From positions 186,061 to 250,060 of the forward strand of contig CAYZYT010000001.1 in assembly GCA_964482725.1 (NCBI GenBank): a stretch of 64,000 nt of DNA, in the 5' to 3' direction. The DNA is from an uncultured bacterium. GTDB lineage: Bacteria > Omnitrophota > Omnitrophia > Omnitrophales > Aquincolibacteriaceae. Within the stretch, counting starts at the first letter, position 1, and each line of letters opens with the position of its first letter. This document shows positions 5,875 to 64,000 of this stretch, piece after piece. A program made the position numbers and the translations under genes. The notes beneath the pieces were generated by a model that saw only the letters and a list, made by a program, of their open reading frames with translations, did not search any database and had not been told where the DNA came from.

Positions 5875-6765
5875 TCAATCGATCAAAAGAGAGAAATCGA
5901 CGGCTTTGACGGAATGGGTGAGAGACCCGACGGAGATAGTGTCCACCCCGGCGGCAGCGAACTTGCGGACATTCTCGAAGGTAATACCGCCCGAGGCTTC
6001 GAGGTTGACCCCGGGAGCTTCCTTGCGTACGATCTCCACCGCCCGCTTGGCTTCTTTAGGCGAAAAATTGTCGAGGAGAATAACCTTGGGACGCAACCCG
6101 ATCGCTTCCCAAAGCTCGCCGAGACTTCGCACTTCAATCTCGAAAGCGCCGGGATGGCGCCGGAGTTTTTTGAGGTCCCCGTGGATCCGGTGGTTCTCTT
6201 TGATAAAGATAAACTCATCAAGCCCCTGCCGGTGGTTCCGGCCGCCCCCCACCTGCACGGCCACCTTTTCCAGCTCACGCCAGATCGGGGTGGTCTTGCG
6301 GGTGTCCAGAATAAACGCCGGATATTTTTTGACACGGTTCACGAATTGACGCGTCTTGGTCGCGATCCCTGAAAGATGCCCGATAAAATTCACCATCGTC
6401 CGCTCGGTCTTGAGGATCGAGCGGATATTTCCTCGCATTTTAAAAACGATCTTCCCCGGTCGGAGCTTACCGCCGTTATGCACCCGGAATTCGAGCTTCA
6501 CTTGGGGGTCGACGATCTTAAAGATCTCCCGGACGAGACGCTCCCCGCAGAAAATGCCGTGTGCCTTGGCGATCACGCGGGCCGTTCCCCGAGCATGCGG
6601 GGGGATCAGCAAATTGGAAGTAACGTCTCCCTGCCCGATGTCCTCATGAAGCGCCTCCTTGAGAAAGCCAAGCGTCCGGCGCGACACCGGCAACGGATGG
6701 CCCGGGAAACCGCCTTTAGAAACTGGCGAGTTGGCTGTGGTAGGATACGAGAAGTTTTTTGGCAT
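5875..6765 (-). CDS. nadC: Nicotinate-nucleotide (quinolinate) pyrophosphorylase.
   Basis: A NadC domain is recognisable across the C-terminal 280 aa. The Met start at 6765 overlaps the valS 3' end by about 50 nt. The upstream part of the ORF-track frame is not NadC-like, and a GTG/TTG start further downstream is possible. Confidence 0.7.
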   Translation of the reverse strand: MPKNFSYPTTANSPVSKGGFPGHPLPVSRRTLGFLKEALHEDIGQGDVTSNLLIPPHARGTARVIAKAHGIFCGERLVREIFKIVDPQVKLEFRVHNGGKLRPGKIVFKMRGNIRSILKTERTMVNFIGHLSGIATKTRQFVNRVKKYPAFILDTRKTTPIWRELEKVAVQVGGGRNHRQGLDEFIFIKENHRIHGDLKKLRRHPGAFEIEVRSLGELWEAIGLRPKVILLDNFSPKEAKRAVEIVRKEAPGVNLEASGGITFENVRKFAAAGVDTISVGSLTHSVKAVDFSLLID

Positions 6766-9577
6766 CGGCAAGTTTCTCTTTCTCTTTTTCCAGGATCTCT
6801 TTCGGAGCTCTTTCGGCGAACGACGGGTTCTCAACTTTTTTACGGATAGTCTCGATCCACTGCTCTGTTTCCAGGATCTTTTTCTGGAGACGTTTTCTCT
6901 CCTCTTCCGGGTCCAGAACTCCCTCGAGCAGGATAAAGGCATCAAAGGCTGCAAAGGAGTTGGCCGCCACGGCGCCCTTTTTCTCGAATTCACGCACACA
7001 AGAAAGTTCCGCGAGCCGTCCCAGCACTTTTACCTCACGCTCGAAAGCGCGCAGGGTCTCCAACGTTCCCTGCTCCTTGCAAACAACGACCGCTTTGAGT
7101 TTATCGGTCGGAGAGATCTTGTAGCGGACCCGGAGATCCCGGAGACCGATCACCGCTTCCTGCAAGAGCCCGATGGCTTTCTGAGCTTCCCCATCGTGGA
7201 ATTTCATTTCCTCTTCGTGCGGCCACGGCGCGAGCATGATGGATTCGGGCCATGGACCCGATCCAACCTGGCAGGTCGAATTAATCCGACCTGCCAGGTT
7301 GGATGGGTGGGCTTTTTGCTTAAAGGTCTGCCAGATCTCTTCGGTGATGAACGGCATAAAAGGATGCAGAAGCCTCAGCATCCGCTCACAGACAAAGAAT
7401 AGGACCTTCTGCGTCTGCAATTTGAGAGCGGCATCCTCCGACAGGACCATGGGTTTCGCGAGCTCGATATACCAATCGCAGAAATCATCCCAGACAAAGT
7501 GATAAAGCTCGGTCGCCGCCTGGGCAAGGCCGAATTGGGAAAGATGCTTTTCGATCATCGCGGCTTTTGCCTCAAGCTGTGACAGGATCCAGCGGCTCGG
7601 AAGCGACAACTTGATGTTTTTGAATTGCGCCGGATCCGTGGAGGCTTCCTGAAACCCTTCGAGCTGCATCAGGACGAACCGGCAGGCGTTCCAGACCTTG
7701 GTGGCAAAATTGCGCCCCATCTCGAACTTCTCCCGGGAAAGATAAACATCCTGCGCGGAAAGCATCACGAGGCTGTAGCGGAGGGCGTCGGCCCCCATCT
7801 CCTCGATCACTTCAAGCGGATCGATGGAATTCCCGAGCGACTTCGACATCTTCAGCCCGCTCGCCGCGCGCACCGTGCCATGGATATTAATTTGGGTAAA
7901 CGGGACCTCCCCCATGAATTCGAGCCCGGCCATGATCATGCGCGCCACCCAGAAAAAGATGATCTCTGGAGCGGTGACAAGCGCCGAGGTCGGATAGAAT
8001 TTCTTCAGATCCTCGGTTTTCGCGGGCCAACCCAGCGTCGAGAACGGCCAGAGCCAGGACGAGAACCAGGTGTCGAGAACGTCCTCGTCGCGTTTGATGT
8101 CCTTTGAACCGCAGTGGGGACATTGAGTGATATCTTCACGAGACACAATCGCTCCGTCAGACTGGAGACTAGAGACTGGAGACTGGCGCTTCTGGTCTGT
8201 GGTCTTTCCAGTTTGCGACTGCGCGCATTTTGCGCAGTACCAAACTGGAAGCCGATGCCCCCACCAGATCTGGCGCGAGATGCACCAATCGCGGATCCCG
8301 TGAAGCCAGTTCAGATAAACCTTGGTCCAGCGGTCCGGAAAGAAAACTGTTTTCCCCTGTTCGTGGGCCTTCAGCGCCTTCTCGGCCAAAGGCTGCATCT
8401 TCACGAACCACTGTTTGGAAAGATACGGCTCCACGACGGTGTCGCAGCGATAGCAATGGCCGACCGCGTGCAGATGCGAGTCGCGCCGGACAAAAAGCCC
8501 CTGCGCTTCCAGGTCCTGAAGGATCTTTTTACGCGCTTCAAACCGGTCCATGCCTTGATACGGTCCGCCGTGCTCGTTGATCTTCGCGTCCGGCGTCATC
8601 ACATTGATCTGCTCGAGATTGTGCCGGTGCCCCATCGCAAAGTCATTGGGATCATGCGCCGGCGTCACTTTCACAATGCCGGTCCCGAATTCGGGGTCCA
8701 CAAAATCATCCGCGATCACCGGGATCTCGCGGTTCACAAGCGGCAGCAGGACTTTCTTCCCGATCAGGTGTTTGTAGCGGGGGTCGGTCGGATGCACTGC
8801 GACCGCGGTATCGCCCAACATGGTTTCGGGACGGGTCGTCGCGACCACAACGTGGTCGATGCCGAGTTTGTCGAGTACAGGGACAGGTCCGCTTTTGCTT
8901 GCAGGACCTGTCCCTGTGACGATCGGATACTTGAGGTGATAAAGCCCACCTTGCATGTCCTTGTGGGCGGCCTCTTCATCGGAAAGCGCTGTCTGGCAAC
9001 GAGGACACCAATTGATGATGTAGTTCCCGCGATAGATCAGTCCACGCTCGTAAAGCGTGACGAACGCCTCGCGCACCGCTTTGGAAAGGCCTTCATCCAT
9101 GGTGAACCGCTCACGGGTCCAGTCGCAGGAAGCGCCGAGCCGGCGGAGCTGGCGCGTGATGGTCGAGCCGTGCTCGTGCTTCCATTTCCAGACTTCTTCG
9201 AGGAATTTTTCGCGGCCGACATCCCAGCGAGTCTTTTTTTCTTTGGCGAGCTTCTTCTCAACCACATTCTGCGTCGCGATCCCCGCGTGATCGACCCCCG
9301 GCACCCAGAGCGTGTCCCGGCCCTTCATGCGGTTCCACCGGATGAGAATATCCTGGATGGAACTGTTGAGCGCGTGGCCCATATGCAGGATGCCTGTGAC
9401 ATTGGGCGGAGGGATGACGATAACATAAGACTTGGGACTTGAGACTTGAGACTTGAGCTTCGGATCTCTGGGCTCTGGGCTCTGGTCACTCGTCGGTTTG
9501 AAGTAGCCCTTCGCTTCCCAGAGGGTGTACCACTTCGTCTCGACTTCTTTGGAGTTGTATTGTTTGTCCAATTCCAT
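6716..9577 (-). CDS. valS: Valyl-tRNA synthetase, carrying three in-frame repeat/palindrome insertions.
   Basis: Class I motifs (PPPNVTG.LHMGHA, KMSKS), a zinc knuckle and a C-terminal coiled coil. It is 953 aa, slightly longer than typical. Confidence 0.9.
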   Translation of the reverse strand: MELDKQYNSKEVETKWYTLWEAKGYFKPTSDQSPEPRDPKLKSQVSSPKSYVIVIPPPNVTGILHMGHALNSSIQDILIRWNRMKGRDTLWVPGVDHAGIATQNVVEKKLAKEKKTRWDVGREKFLEEVWKWKHEHGSTITRQLRRLGASCDWTRERFTMDEGLSKAVREAFVTLYERGLIYRGNYIINWCPRCQTALSDEEAAHKDMQGGLYHLKYPIVTGTGPASKSGPVPVLDKLGIDHVVVATTRPETMLGDTAVAVHPTDPRYKHLIGKKVLLPLVNREIPVIADDFVDPEFGTGIVKVTPAHDPNDFAMGHRHNLEQINVMTPDAKINEHGGPYQGMDRFEARKKILQDLEAQGLFVRRDSHLHAVGHCYRCDTVVEPYLSKQWFVKMQPLAEKALKAHEQGKTVFFPDRWTKVYLNWLHGIRDWCISRQIWWGHRLPVWYCAKCAQSQTGKTTDQKRQSPVSSLQSDGAIVSREDITQCPHCGSKDIKRDEDVLDTWFSSWLWPFSTLGWPAKTEDLKKFYPTSALVTAPEIIFFWVARMIMAGLEFMGEVPFTQINIHGTVRAASGLKMSKSLGNSIDPLEVIEEMGADALRYSLVMLSAQDVYLSREKFEMGRNFATKVWNACRFVLMQLEGFQEASTDPAQFKNIKLSLPSRWILSQLEAKAAMIEKHLSQFGLAQAATELYHFVWDDFCDWYIELAKPMVLSEDAALKLQTQKVLFFVCERMLRLLHPFMPFITEEIWQTFKQKAHPSNLAGRINSTCQVGSGPWPESIMLAPWPHEEEMKFHDGEAQKAIGLLQEAVIGLRDLRVRYKISPTDKLKAVVVCKEQGTLETLRAFEREVKVLGRLAELSCVREFEKKGAVAANSFAAFDAFILLEGVLDPEEERKRLQKKILETEQWIETIRKKVENPSFAERAPKEILEKEKEKLADAKKLLVSYHSQLASF
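7263..7302. repeat. 40-bp near-perfect palindrome (CCAACCTGGCAGGTCGAATT|AATCCGACCTGCCAGGTTGG, one mismatch) inside valS coding sequence, in-frame.
   Basis: The reverse complement of the second half equals the first half except at one position. It encodes an extra peptide (..SNLAGRINSTCQVG..) near the conserved SIMLAPWP region. Confidence 0.7.
8158..8248. repeat. Composite insertion in valS: heptamer tandem repeats (GAGACTR x4, TGGTCTG x2) plus an imperfect palindrome of about 41 bp (CCAGTTTGCGACTGCGCGCATTTTGCGCAGTACCAAACTGG).
   Basis: It sits between the two Cys pairs of the ValRS zinc knuckle and encodes QSQTGKTTDQKRQSPVSSLQSDG. It is homologous to the element at 9428..9490. Confidence 0.6.
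9428..9490. repeat. Heptamer tandem-repeat insertion near the valS N-terminus (GACTTGR x4 then CTCTGGG x3).
   Basis: Encodes SDQSPEPRDPKLKSQVSSPKS between FKP and the PPPNVTG/HIGH region. It is the same repeat type as 8158..8248. Confidence 0.6.
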
Positions 9578-9586
9578 AAATACCGG

Positions 9587-9657
9587 AAGGAGGAGGGAGG
9601 ATGGCGGAGGGCGTCAAACCAGGCTTGTCGCCATCCTCCCTCCGCCTTCCGCCATCC
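9587..9657. repeat. GGATGG/CCATCC-rich hairpin element, family F2, copy 1. A 12-bp stem GGGAGGATGGCG / CGCCATCCTCCC flanks a loop of about 22 nt.
   Basis: Lies between the valS start and the cimA stop. Related copies are at 16449 and 23999. Confidence 0.55.
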
Positions 9658-11216
9658 TATCCTTTGTGTAATTTATATTCGATCGCTTCGACGAGGGCTT
9701 TCCAGCTGGCTTCGATGATGTTTTCGTGGACACCGACCGTGGTCCAGGTTTTTTGTTTATCCTGGAATTCGATAAAGACGCGTACCTTCGCCGCCGTTCC
9801 GGCCTCGGAATTGACGACGCGCACTTTATAATCCGTCAGGTGGATCTCATCGATCACGGGATACGTTTTGGCGAGCGCTTTCCGCAGCGCGGAATCGAGC
9901 GCGTTGACCGGCCCGTCCCCGTCCGCCGATTCAAAATGTTCGACGCCCTGAGCCGTGACTTGCACGTCTGCGATCGAGCGTGGGCTTCCGGCGCCGATCT
10001 CTTCGGTGCGCACGGAAACCGCGCCGGGTTGGAAGAACGGCTTGTATTTACCGAGGACCCGCTGCACGAGAAGCTCAAAACTCGCTTCCGCAGCTTCAAA
10101 TTGATACCCTTCGTATTCCAGGCGCTGGATCTCGGCGAGGATCTTCTTGGCCTCAGAAGAATCTTTCTGGAATTTCATTTCAAGTTCCTCGGCCTTGATC
10201 ATGATATTGGTCTTCCCCCCGAGCTCGGAGACAAGATACCGGCGGTAATTCCCGAGAGCTTTGGGCTCCACGTGCTCGTAGGTCTTGGCGTTCTTTACCA
10301 TGGCGTTGATGTGCACGCCGCCTTTGTGCGCGAACGCGGAGCGGCCCGTGAACGGCTGATTATTGACCAGAGGCATATTGCAAACCTCGGCCACATAATG
10401 CGAGAGCTGGGTCAGCTCCTTCATTTTCTTTGCGGGAAAGCACGGAACCTTCATCTTGAACTGGAGGTCCGGGATGATGCTTGCAAGGTTCGTGTTCCCG
10501 CAGCGCTCGCCGTAACCGTTGATCGTTCCCTGCACGAGAACGCATCCTTCGCCCACCGCCTGGATGGAATTGGCGACCGCAAGCTCGGAATCATTATGAC
10601 AGTGGATGCCGAGCGGCGTTTTCACGGAGCGCTTTACCTTCTGGATCGCGTGACGCACTTCATGCGGCAGGCTTCCGCCATTCGTATCACAGAGTGAAAG
10701 ATTGTTGGCGCCCGCTTTCGCGGCCTGCTGAAGCGTTTTCAGCGCGTATTCGGGATTCGCCTTGAACCCGTCAAAAAAATGTTCGGCATCATAGATCACT
10801 TCGATCTTCCGGTCCTTGAGGTACGCGACCGTTTCATAGATCATCAGGAGATTTTCTTTGAGCGTCGTCCGGAACACTTCAGTCACGTGCATGTCCCAGG
10901 ATTTCCCGAACACCGTCACGACCTTGGTGCCGGCTTCGAGCAGCGCTTTGATCTGCGAGTCTTCTTTGACTTTCATGTGGGCGCGGCGCGTGGAGCCGAA
11001 TGCCGCGATCTTGGAGTGTTTGATCCCGGCCTTCTTGACCGCGAGGAAGAATTCCATATCCTTCGGATTCGAACCCGGCCATCCGCCTTCGATGTAATGG
11101 ACACCGAACTGATCGAGCCGCTTCGCGATCAGCACCTTATCGTGGGAGGACAGACTGATCCCCTCAGCTTGTGAGCCATCACGGAGTGTTGTGTCGTAGA
11201 AAAGAATCTTCTTCAT
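9657..11216 (-). CDS. cimA: (R)-citramalate synthase (CimA clade of the LeuA/HMGL family).
   Basis: Motifs LRDGSQ, IEGGWPGSNPKD and HxH, plus a C-terminal LeuA-dimer regulatory domain. Start chosen at MKKILFYDTT. The ORF track extends to 11237. Confidence 0.7.
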   Translation of the reverse strand: MKKILFYDTTLRDGSQAEGISLSSHDKVLIAKRLDQFGVHYIEGGWPGSNPKDMEFFLAVKKAGIKHSKIAAFGSTRRAHMKVKEDSQIKALLEAGTKVVTVFGKSWDMHVTEVFRTTLKENLLMIYETVAYLKDRKIEVIYDAEHFFDGFKANPEYALKTLQQAAKAGANNLSLCDTNGGSLPHEVRHAIQKVKRSVKTPLGIHCHNDSELAVANSIQAVGEGCVLVQGTINGYGERCGNTNLASIIPDLQFKMKVPCFPAKKMKELTQLSHYVAEVCNMPLVNNQPFTGRSAFAHKGGVHINAMVKNAKTYEHVEPKALGNYRRYLVSELGGKTNIMIKAEELEMKFQKDSSEAKKILAEIQRLEYEGYQFEAAEASFELLVQRVLGKYKPFFQPGAVSVRTEEIGAGSPRSIADVQVTAQGVEHFESADGDGPVNALDSALRKALAKTYPVIDEIHLTDYKVRVVNSEAGTAAKVRVFIEFQDKQKTWTTVGVHENIIEASWKALVEAIEYKLHKG

Positions 11217-11244: not shown

Positions 11245-11309
11245 GTGTCAGGGTGTCAAAGTATCAGAGTTTCAAAACTTTGACACTTTGATACTCTGAG
11301 ACTTTGATA
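11245..11309. repeat. Intergenic element family F3 (GTGTCAGGGTGTCAAAGTATCAGAGTTTCA...), copy X.
   Basis: A near-identical unit is present in inverted orientation at 61485..61544. It lies between lysC and cimA. Confidence 0.55.
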
Positions 11310-16249: not shown

Positions 16250-16448
16250 ATGGCTCCTGCGCAAACGTCCTAAGTTCCGTAGTGATAAAACCTTAACAAA
16301 GACCGGATCGCCCTGATCTTCCATTTTTTGAAATAATAAGGTACTCGGGACCACCCAGACTTCCCTGTTAATTTCCCCAACAAAAGTCGGCGTAGTATAT
16401 CGTGCCCTTGATTAAAAATCAAACAGCCCTTGCGCCGGATATCGGATA

Positions 16449-16507
16449 ACGGATGGAGGATGGCGTAAAACTAAAGACCCGGCTCCATCCACCCTCCTCC
16501 ATCCGTC
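16449..16507. repeat. Family F2 element, copy 2 (CGGATGGAGGATGG ... CCATCCACCCTCCTCCATCCG).
   Basis: Inverted GGATGG-rich arms, upstream of hom. Confidence 0.5.
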
Positions 16508-16602
16508 ACCCCTTTGAAATTCTCGCTTTCTTTACTTTAAAACCTGTTTATGTATACTATCTTCGCTTGCACTCCTCAATGAGCTAAATAAGGGGCCTAC
16601 AA

Positions 16603-61484: not shown

Positions 61485-61544
61485 GTGTCAAAGTATCAAC
61501 GTTTCAACGCATCATGAAACTCTGATACTTTGATACCCTGACAC
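61485..61544. repeat. Family F3 element, copy Y. The palindrome is built from two inverted copies of GTGTCA(GGGTAT)CAAAGTATCA..GTTTCA.
   Basis: The reverse complement of the right arm, GTGTCAGGGTATCAAAGTATCAGAGTTTCA, matches 11247..11276 almost exactly. Confidence 0.55.
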
Positions 61545-62626: not shown

Positions 62627-64000
62627 TTACCCGTTAACGAGCTTCTGCATTAGAAGCTCGTTAACTATTTTTGGATTCGCTTTTCCGCCAGTTTCTTTCA
62701 TCACCGCGCCGACGAGAGCGCCGAGGGCCTTTTGTTTTCCGGCCTTGAATTCCGCGACCGCAGTCGGGTTCGCCGCGATGGATTTTTCGACCGCTTTTTC
62801 GATCAAGCCGGTGTCCGAAACCTGTGTCAGGCCTTTTTCTTTGACGATGCTATCAGCATCTTTCCCGGTCTCGAACATCATTCCAAGCACGTCCTTTGCG
62901 GTCTTCCCGGAGACGGTCCCGTTGTCGATCAGCTTGAGAAGTCCGGCAAAAGCTTTCGCCGTGACGAGGCAGTGTTCGATCCCAAGACCTTTACTGTTCA
63001 GGACCGCAAGCAGTTCAGTCAGGACCCAGTTGCTGGCAAGTTTTGCCAGGGACAGGTCCTCTTTTTTCAGGACCTGTCCCTGAGTGACAACCGCCTCAAA
63101 ATATTCCGCGAGTTTTTTATCTTCCACAAGCGTATACGCGTCATATTCAGAGAGAGCGAATTCCTTTATGAACCGCTTCGCGCGTTCGAGCGGAAGTTCG
63201 GGTAAAGTTTTTCTAATTTCCTCGACCACCTCACGGGACAAGGTGAACGGCACCAGATCCGGCTCCGGGAAATACCGGTAATCATGGGCTTCTTCCTTTG
63301 AGCGCATGGAAAAAGTCGTACCCTTAGTGTCATTCCAAAGCCGCGTCTCCTGCACGATCGTCTCCCCGGCTTCGCAGGCTTCGGTTTGCCGTTCGATCTC
63401 GTACTGGATCGCTTTCTGAACCATCTTGAAAGAATTCAGATTCTTGATCTCAACCTTGGTCCCGAGTTTTTCCTGGCCTACGGGTCGCACCGACACGTTC
63501 GCGTCGCAGCGGAGGCTTCCCTTTTCCATATCGCAGTCGCTTACCTCCACATATTGGAGGATCGCTTTGAGCGCGGTGAGGTAATCATAAGCTTCCTGCG
63601 GGCTGCGAAGGTCGGGCTCAGAGACGATCTCAAGAAGCGGAATACCGCCGCGGTTGTAATCCACCAGGCTTCCGTCCGTGATCCCTTCATGCAGAAGTTT
63701 CCCGGCATCTTCTTCCAGGTGCGCGCGCGTGATGCCGATCCTCTTGACGACGAACAACTCAGGGACAGGTCCTCTTTTTTCAGGACCTGTCCCTGTCTCG
63801 ATATCAAGCCACCCTTTCCCATTCACGGGCATGTCAAACTGCGAGATCTGGTAGGCCTTGGGAAGATCCGGATAAAAATAATTTTTCCGATCAAATTTGA
63901 GCCGCTCTGCCACTTTACAATTAAGAGCGAGCCCCACCCGAATCCCGAGTTTCAAGGCCGCCTCGTTTAAGACGGGCAACGACCCCGGCCAACCGAGACA
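62627..64000 (-). CDS. gatB: Asp/Glu-tRNA amidotransferase subunit B, partial. The N-terminus lies beyond the window end. It carries two identical in-frame 36-bp palindromic insertions.
   Basis: GatB homology starts at about residue 50 and continues in-frame through the last base of the window. Confidence 0.9.
   Translation of the reverse strand, partial: CLGWPGSLPVLNEAALKLGIRVGLALNCKVAERLKFDRKNYFYPDLPKAYQISQFDMPVNGKGWLDIETGTGPEKRGPVPELFVVKRIGITRAHLEEDAGKLLHEGITDGSLVDYNRGGIPLLEIVSEPDLRSPQEAYDYLTALKAILQYVEVSDCDMEKGSLRCDANVSVRPVGQEKLGTKVEIKNLNSFKMVQKAIQYEIERQTEACEAGETIVQETRLWNDTKGTTFSMRSKEEAHDYRYFPEPDLVPFTLSREVVEEIRKTLPELPLERAKRFIKEFALSEYDAYTLVEDKKLAEYFEAVVTQGQVLKKEDLSLAKLASNWVLTELLAVLNSKGLGIEHCLVTAKAFAGLLKLIDNGTVSGKTAKDVLGMMFETGKDADSIVKEKGLTQVSDTGLIEKAVEKSIAANPTAVAEFKAGKQKALGALVGAVMKETGGKANPKIVNELLMQKLVNG
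63047..63082. repeat. 36-bp perfect palindrome CAGGGACAGGTCCT-cttttttc-AGGACCTGTCCCTG inside gatB, in-frame. It encodes QGQVLKKEDLSL.
   Basis: 14-bp perfect arms. Identical to 63760..63795. Confidence 0.8.
63760..63795. repeat. Second identical 36-bp palindrome inside gatB, in a different frame. It encodes TGTGPEKRGPVP.
   Basis: Exact 36/36 match to 63047..63082. Confidence 0.8.

Follow-up and report, generated by a model that had tools for sequence, protein, structure and literature searches.

A REPIN-like palindrome, probably a selfish element, within the valS gene of an uncultured Omnitrophota bacterium

Inverted repeats within coding sequence are familiar from the GC-cluster, or double-hairpin, elements of mitochondria. 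Repetitive extragenic palindromic (REP) sequences and the REPINs that they form have been described together with REP-associated tyrosine transposases (RayT), in an arrangement with alternative long-hairpin and "clover" folds and compensatory changes (Bertels and Rainey, 2011; PMC3116915). Di Nocera et al. (2013; PMC3733652) reported intragenic REPs of the GTAG/CGTC type, with the highest numbers in Opitutus terrae and Rickettsia conorii. A review (PMC10969869) presents the Rickettsia palindromic elements (RPEs) as selfish palindromic DNA that lies in frame in unrelated essential genes and is translated (Ogata et al., 2000, 2002), and judges the inserts compatible with protein fold and function. 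For mitochondrial genes of Nematomorpha, PMC6649704 describes coding palindromes in which both arms encode conserved protein regions. Our search of the literature on palindromic elements in Omnitrophota found nothing relevant. Here we describe a palindrome within the coding sequence of valS, the valine--tRNA ligase (ValRS) gene, in a 64,000-nt stretch of DNA from an uncultured bacterium of the Omnitrophota (contig CAYZYT010000001.1, positions 186,061 to 250,060), which we refer to as the window and by whose own numbering all positions are given. We put at roughly 0.6 the probability that the palindrome is a REPIN-like, non-autonomous selfish element that sits in a permissive loop of ValRS and is translated as a tolerated extension, with RayT as the most likely mobilizer.

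The palindrome in valS and its anatomy

A first-pass annotation of the window had noted a 40-bp palindrome with one mismatch at positions 7263-7302 (CCAACCTGGCAGGTCGAATT/AATCCGACCTGCCAGGTTGG). The sequence agrees, the one non-complementary position being 7279 versus 7286, and the symmetry reaches further out. A palindrome scan traced it to 7261-7304, with 22-nt arms, zero loop, and one mismatch, and the full palindrome (Table 1) is the longest inverted repeat of the window. The element as a whole measures 44-56 nt. The window contains nine palindromes whose arms are 12 nt or longer, as against 0, 0, 0, 0, and 1 in five block-shuffles; in codon-shuffled valS genes, palindromes with arms of 11 nt or more numbered 0.3-0.65. 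Because the shuffled counts stay far lower, the palindrome is not explicable by chance; we roughly estimate that chance would give ~2e-7 palindromes with a 22-nt arm and no more than one mismatch in a sequence of 64 kb. A folding prediction, as the first-pass annotation had suggested, showed the coding strand of the element to be stable both as RNA (-48.3 kcal/mol, z = -8.6) and as DNA (-27.9 kcal/mol, z = -8.0). An Rfam search with the element returned only miRNA-like hairpin matches that were far under the gathering scores, and a promoter and terminator scan at the site detected no such signal.

Each arm of the palindrome is itself a small hairpin. The element thus has the architecture of a REPIN, with REP-like units arranged as an inverted doublet. 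The unit is ~21 nt long, with the consensus ATCCRACC-N5-GGTYGGAT in an alignment of the family copies described below. The unit cores, TGCCA and TGGCA, are complementary, so that units 1 and 2 also pair together, and two alternative folds are possible for the doublet, i.e., one long hairpin or two small hairpins. Among 11 copies, all of the inverted type, which favors the long hairpin (direct, non-inverted doublets also exist, in two copies, L015 and L020), the long hairpin was 91% paired over 23 pairs, with nine of the 23 pairs changed on both sides. In the same copies the unit hairpins were 93% paired, and the 5-nt cores covaried between the two units. Both kinds of pairing were well above slid-register controls, and the covariation score of the long hairpin was reached by none of 500 shuffles.

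The valS product is 100% identical to orthologue P0001, whose gene lies on a 356-kb NCBI contig, and its near homologues are named valine--tRNA ligase from metagenome-assembled genomes (MAGs) of Candidatus Omnitrophota. In frame, the palindrome reads ..KAHPSNLAGRINSTCQVGSGPWPESIMLAPWP.., and an alignment of 120 Omnitrophota orthologues supports the conclusion that it is an extra segment of valS that is not conserved in ValRS. Ninety-five of the 120 orthologues place 21 residues between the invariant W749 and W785, as against 35 in the window protein, where the common form ..QKAADAKAWPETIML.. becomes ..QKAHPSNLAGRINSTCQVGSGPWPESIML..; ValRS of Thermus thermophilus (1GAX) has a 13-column gap at this position. 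An insertion of about 13 residues just before the conserved SIMLAPWP region had been proposed in the first-pass annotation. The alignment upholds both the insertion and its place, directly ahead of the WPE(S/T)IMLA.WP block, and corrects its size to a net gain of 14 residues. In an AlphaFold2 model of ValRS (91 sequences, mean pLDDT 82.9), residues 763-772 are coil with pLDDT below 50 and lie between a helix (residues 742-755) and the next domain. In the 1GAX structure, we take the insert site to be the linker from the anticodon-binding helix bundle to the C-terminal stem-contact domain.

Other segments modeled with low confidence (residues 34-46, 457-472, and the 221-230 block) coincide with other length-variable loops of the enzyme. 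Across the Omnitrophota clade, ValRS ranges from 895 to 988 aa (P0001-P0120) and has at least five length-hypervariable loops (Table 1). Many of the inserts in these loops look palindrome- or repeat-encoded, e.g., GTGSFSEGKGACP, GQAPFSKSQNGAS, and SFPRVLSGNP..SPIKAFGDD.

Filled and empty alleles and related copies elsewhere

Exactly 14 additional residues were found at the same codon in three further orthologues, namely P0003, P0004, and P0016 (DNA loci L001, L003, and L004); the site is empty in P0002 and P0006 (L002 and L005). The cores of the carriers differ (TGGCA, TCCGA, and CCGGG), as do 3-5 paired stem positions, and still the arms are complementary within each carrier. All four carriers share altered flanks (D/H-Q/P ... 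L/S-G), unlike the empty alleles. In a neighbor-joining tree built from 863 gap-free columns with 200 bootstrap replicates, the carriers (P0001, P0003, P0004, and P0016) were monophyletic in none of the replicates. Instead, the empty P0002 was sister to the filled P0003 in 98% of replicates, and the empty P0039 was sister to the filled P0016 in ~100%. In eight more orthologues the site is taken up by unrelated inserts, which add 7 to 30 residues, indicating that this ValRS loop is an insertion hot spot.

To look beyond valS, we used a search pattern built from the four valS copies only (ATCCRACC-N5-GGTYG-N4-12-CRACC-N5-GGTYGG). It matched 21 loci in 185,579 species-representative genomes, versus ~0.6 expected by our own estimate. 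Eight of these loci are from Omnitrophota, five of them in a single MAG, CAZSFZ01, the genome of P0016. A sixth copy lies inside one of those five loci, which brings this MAG to at least six copies under the strict pattern, and its valS copy has the same CCGGG-type core as the five others. Counted as independent sites, five of seven in Omnitrophota are intragenic (valS, gatA, queA, nadE, and an aminotransferase-like open reading frame, ORF) and two are intergenic, a small sample. The reading frame differs by host, and the encoded peptide (SNLAGRINSTCQVG, SDLRGRSGPTSEVG, SDLRGR..PTSEVG, and IRPRRSD..RPPGSD) varies with the frame and the stem variant.

The pattern was not selected for transposase genes. 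Nevertheless, two of the 21 loci, both outside the Omnitrophota, adjoin IS200-like Y1 transposase genes (PF01797; L017 and L018 in Table 1), and the inverted doublet next to these genes, CCAACCTCGGAGGTTGG, is the same as that of the valS family. Proteins homologous to that of L017 carry the names "REP element-mobilizing transposase RayT" or "REP-associated tyrosine transposase," and related RayT genes, at L045 and L046, have covarying doublets of their own in their flanks.

Table 1. Positions and properties of the valS palindrome, its host gene, and related copies
Feature	Location	Strand	Details
Full palindrome	7258-7307	.	25-nt arms, 2 mismatches, 92% complementary, no spacer; encloses 7261-7304 and 7263-7302
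REP-like unit 1	7284-7304	-	Coding strand ATCCAACC-TGGCA-GGTCGGAT; 8-bp stem, one A/C mismatch (coding strand), 5-nt core
REP-like unit 2	7261-7281	-	Coding strand ATTCGACC-TGCCA-GGTTGGAT; inverted relative to unit 1
Spacer between units 1 and 2	7282-7283		2 nt, TA on coding strand
Match of covariance model built from family copies	7253-7312	-	60 positions, 68.8 bits, E = 1.2e-17; sole match in window
valS (valine--tRNA ligase)	6716-9577	-	ORF, 953 aa; match to T. thermophilus ValRS 1gax, E = 9.5e-221
Segment unlike empty alleles	Residues 757-775 (HPSNLAGRINSTCQVGSGP)		Codons within 7253-7312
Peptide stretches spanning insert			..KAHPSNLAGR / INSTCQVGSGPWPESIMLAPWPHEEEMK..
Hypervariable ValRS loops	Window residues ~31-51, 217-239, 446-478, 757-775, ~790		
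gatB	62627-63979	-	
L001 (P0003) element			GACCAATCCGACCTCCGAGGTCGGAGT / GGTCCGACCTCGGAGGTCGGATTGGGTC
L003 element			Perfect 50-nt palindrome, CCAATCCAACCCCGGGGGTTGGACC / GGTCCAACCCCCGGGGTTGGATTGG
Multi-copy MAG CAZSFZ01	GCA_964606385.1		
In-frame host GatA			Two genomes, same position
In-frame host QueA			T. maritima QueA 1vky has 12-residue gap at element
In-frame host NadE			Glutamine-dependent NAD synthetase-like ORF
In-frame host, class-IV aminotransferase-like ORF			
Intergenic copies	Two spacers, Omnitrophota MAGs		
L017 (Anaerolineales)	Directly 5' of Y1 gene		Doublet, ends 13 nt before ATG; degenerate single unit just 3'
L018 (Solirubrobacterales)	10 nt 3' of Y1 gene		Doublet

Origin of the element

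In the reading that we prefer, two ~21-nt REP-like hairpin units in inverted orientation would form one REPIN-like element, and this non-autonomous selfish DNA would have ended up in an inter-domain loop of ValRS that is disordered and permissive. With a length that is a multiple of three and a frame free of stops, the element would simply be translated, presumably without removal of the segment, as a loop that is longer by 14 residues (..SNLAGRINSTCQVG..). The enzyme would tolerate the added peptide, which is probably neutral. The most likely mobilizer would be a RayT-type Y1 (HUH) tyrosine transposase. Enzymes of this type act on single-stranded-DNA hairpins without target-site duplication, and those of the IS200/IS605 type leave none either. 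In keeping with this expectation, comparison of filled and empty alleles revealed no target-site duplication at the edges of the element. A RayT, or some other transposase, would move the element within Omnitrophota, and the element may be mobile at present.

A number of observations weigh against this reading. A motif scan of the window and of ~150 kb of Omnitrophota loci found no RayT-like (HUH/Y motif) ORF, only L017 and L018 being positive, and no Omnitrophota name occurred among the best 120 RayT homologues, where Chloroflexota, cyanobacteria, and the Candidate Phyla Radiation are named. The GTAG tag is missing from the window copy and from eight of nine Omnitrophota copies examined. The flanks in the window, CCCACCCA followed by TCC... 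on one side and ...GGA followed by TCGGGTCC on the other, are without GTAG, CTAC, CGTC, or GACG; among Omnitrophota copies GTAG is present only in L004/L008 (GGTTGG-GTAG), and it is found 2-8 nt away in L017 and L018. The resemblance of the valS unit to the units flanking RayT genes could be convergent, because the unit is short and GC-rich. Nor was the insertion clean, since ~54 nt (GACCAATCC...GGATTGGGT) stand in place of ~12 nt (GCGGACACAAAA) of the empty allele. With the tag lacking and ~12 nt of target replaced, it is conceivable that the hairpins might move by a non-classical route that is not of the GTAG/RayT kind. The first-pass annotation had suggested a search for further copies of the arm. 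Copies of the family turned up in related Omnitrophota genomes but not elsewhere in the window, where arm, unit-pattern, and covariance-model searches all match the valS copy only, and the window variant (core TGGCA) with ATCCAACC ends has no second copy in JGI metagenomes. Finally, the nucleotide identity of P0003 and P0002 (L001 and L002) switches at the element, from 80-82% over residues 600-757 to 94-97% past residue 776. This sharp change marks valS as a recombination mosaic, and homologous recombination, instead of repeated transposition, may thus be the cause of the patchy distribution.

The same break in identity speaks for an explanation that we regard as rather unlikely, although ahead of the other alternatives: a single ancient insertion whose filled allele then spread among related Omnitrophota by homologous recombination, leaving a relic that no longer moves by itself and in which intra-hairpin repair or gene conversion preserves the complementarity of the arms. 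A relic would also account for the gain of exactly 14 codons at one and the same codon in four carriers with shared altered flanks, and for the absence of the GTAG tag. It sits poorly, however, with the 3-5 paired positions at which the carriers' stems differ, and the CCGGG-type core that the CAZSFZ01 valS copy has in common with its genome-mates is easier to reconcile with master copies particular to each genome than with a single old allele. Moreover, the family is spread over unrelated genes and spacers, from which it follows that it was once mobile. That dispersal, in several reading frames, bears equally on the improbable notion that selection maintains the hairpin as a functional structure in the mRNA or DNA of valS, such as one that makes translation pause at a domain boundary or that serves regulation or stability. 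The very stable RNA hairpin, the covariation of its arms between orthologues, and its location after the last helix of the anticodon-binding bundle, ahead of the next domain, are what such a function would predict. Yet 95 of 120 orthologues do without the element, sister taxa of the carriers included, eight others have unrelated inserts at the site, and neither an Rfam match nor a promoter or terminator signal was found.

Slightly less probable again is a local origin, in which template switching or hairpin-primed replication copied a neighboring sequence in inverted form and the palindrome belongs to no mobile family. Conserved arms with an inverted copy of this sort do exist in the window, at 8206-8250 in valS and at 62633-62665 at the C-terminus of gatB, but neither arm of 7258-7307 resembles adjacent conserved valS sequence, and the unit is seen again beside RayT genes and, in other Omnitrophota genomes, at six or more further loci. 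An artifact of assembly or amplification, e.g., a chimeric foldback, comes to mind since the window is from a MAG and metagenome assemblies can contain such chimeras; we consider it scarcely credible, as four independent assemblies (NCBI, ENA, and JGI) have an element at the same codon, in frame, with differing stems and intact valS frames.

Other palindromes and comparison with known systems

The two palindromes cited under a local origin do look as if they arose in that way. At 8206-8250 (residues ~442-457 of ValRS), an inverted repeat has 19-nt arms, one of which is the conserved coding sequence for LPVWYCAKC. The other arm, its inverted copy, forms the start of a variable zinc-knuckle insert (AQSQTGK) that is common to ~10 orthologues, and from its sequence the repeat looks like a template-switch inverted duplication and not like a dispersed element. 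The last gatB codons (62633-62665) form a perfect palindrome with 14-nt arms, GTTAACGAGCTTCT-gcatt-AGAAGCTCGTTAAC, which encodes ..VNELLMQKLVNG-stop, the C-terminal tail of GatB being an inverted copy of its VNELL codons.

A second family of in-frame palindromes, with arms CAGGGACAGGTCC, is represented in valS (8877-8917) and twice in gatB (63047-63082 and 63760-63795). In gatB one and the same 36-mer (CAGGGACAGGTCCTGAAAAAAGAGGACCTGTCCCTG) occurs at both positions but in different frames, giving QGQVLKKEDLSL and TGTGPEKRGPVPE. The loop of the valS copy is 13 nt long, and the encoded peptide, TGTGPASKSGPVPV, is missing from Thermus ValRS and from most orthologues. The first-pass annotation had held the 7263-7302 palindrome to be of the same architecture as the gatB elements and, as its sequence differed, to represent a second subfamily. 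The difference in sequence stands, there being no meaningful similarity between the gatB elements and the 7258-7307 element; the shared architecture does not, since the gatB elements are plain stem-loops (14-nt arms, 8-nt loop) as against a doublet of hairpin units. We therefore treat them as separate families, not subfamilies, with only the habit of in-frame palindromic insertion in common. Two intergenic hairpins, at 9584-9658 (from the stop of a cimA-like gene to the valS start) and 16444-16511, are long and have related arms, 20-23 nt in length (..GGAGGGAGGATGGCG.. / ..GGATGGAGGATGG..), that enclose loops of 22-28 nt; they may be a third, intergenic repeat family. Intergenic inverted repeats at 11245-11299 and 61485-61536 have arms of a common GTGTCAAAGT/ACTTTGACAC type, with no open frame across either.

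Metagenome searches also returned candidates that we rejected. Eighteen JGI loci with the window-type core proved to be other hairpins that share the near-palindromic ACCTGSCAGGT, none of the 18 having ATCCAACC ends; some of them lie inside genes, one for a glycosyltransferase and one probably for RNase HII. Related doublets (GGTCAACCTGGCAGGTTG...) are present on JGI contigs L031 (2730-2765), L032 (3218-3253 and 1536-1597), L042 (5233-5268 and 3551-3612), and L039 (1013-1050). They lie in frame in a glycosyltransferase-like ORF of ~400 aa (NLAGCPVGQPARL) and in a 241-aa ORF, likely RNase HII, with second copies close by. Matches on viral contigs were only tandem hairpin arrays of a Streptomyces-like type and are unrelated.

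In-frame selfish palindromes in essential genes have so far been seen as mostly a Rickettsia trait, together with scattered intragenic REPs. The valS element displays the same habit in a free-standing, uncultured phylum, and with a much smaller element of REPIN anatomy. If the habit is general, it would account for much of the odd length variation of Omnitrophota proteins, caution annotators and phylogeneticists that such loops are repeat-derived, and provide natural "permissive-site maps" of essential enzymes. The element also offers a concrete test of the seeding of hairpins into coding DNA by RayT-type or other enzymes. We advance only tentatively, as a doubtful possibility, the broader idea that in this clade hairpin repeats (those of the REPIN-like family and of one or more further palindrome families) may now have coding DNA, and no longer spacers, as their main niche. 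There, a small set of disordered loops in ValRS, GatA, GatB, QueA, and NadE would time and again gain, lose, or exchange them. Were this so, selfish hairpins would be a principal source of protein-length variation phylum-wide.

Among known systems, a miniature inverted-repeat transposable element, the cut-down DDE-transposon type, was rejected for the valS palindrome, which has no direct repeat at its edges and whose flanks are themselves inverted. The coding palindromes of Nematomorpha are likewise perfect or near-perfect inverted repeats in coding sequence, but their arms encode conserved regions (PMC6649704), whereas the valS palindrome is wholly an extra, non-conserved loop. The likeness to RPEs is closer. 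Both are stop-free in-frame insertions in unrelated housekeeping genes, and the valS insert is a low-confidence coil between well-modeled domains. RPEs (PMC10969869) are ~100-150 bp long and form Rickettsia-specific families, each with a conserved peptide of 30-50 residues. In contrast, the Omnitrophota element measures 44-56 nt, with a net gain of 14 residues; it consists of two small hairpins in a doublet and occurs in several reading frames, so its peptide is not constant. Intragenic REPs resemble it in occurring as singlets or dimers inside genes, often housekeeping or repair genes, where they encode ~20-30 residues that are missing from the proteins of related strains (PMC3733652). They differ in being defined by GTAG/CGTC at one end and in that most members are still intergenic, and Omnitrophota are outside the coverage of that study.

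Set against classical REPs and REPINs, the valS element lacks two defining features, as it also falls short of the size of RPEs. The GTAG/CGTC end tag of classical units is lacking in the window copy, and classical REPs are mostly extragenic, whereas the Omnitrophota element is mostly intragenic and translated (five of seven sites, in the small sample noted above). It is also far shorter, at ~44-56 nt, than the REPINs of Pseudomonas fluorescens, which are ~100 nt long (PMC3116915). REPs and REPINs typically have many copies per genome; of this family, one copy lies in the 64-kb window and at least six in the related MAG CAZSFZ01. Several features correspond. The valS units (~21 nt) are imperfectly palindromic, like REP units of ~20 nt, and form an inverted pair with a short spacer that can adopt a long-hairpin or a two-hairpin ("clover") fold, with compensatory changes in the arms. 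As with REPs, direct doublets occur too (here, L015 and L020), and the same unit flanks RayT genes, as seen in other phyla at L017 and L018.

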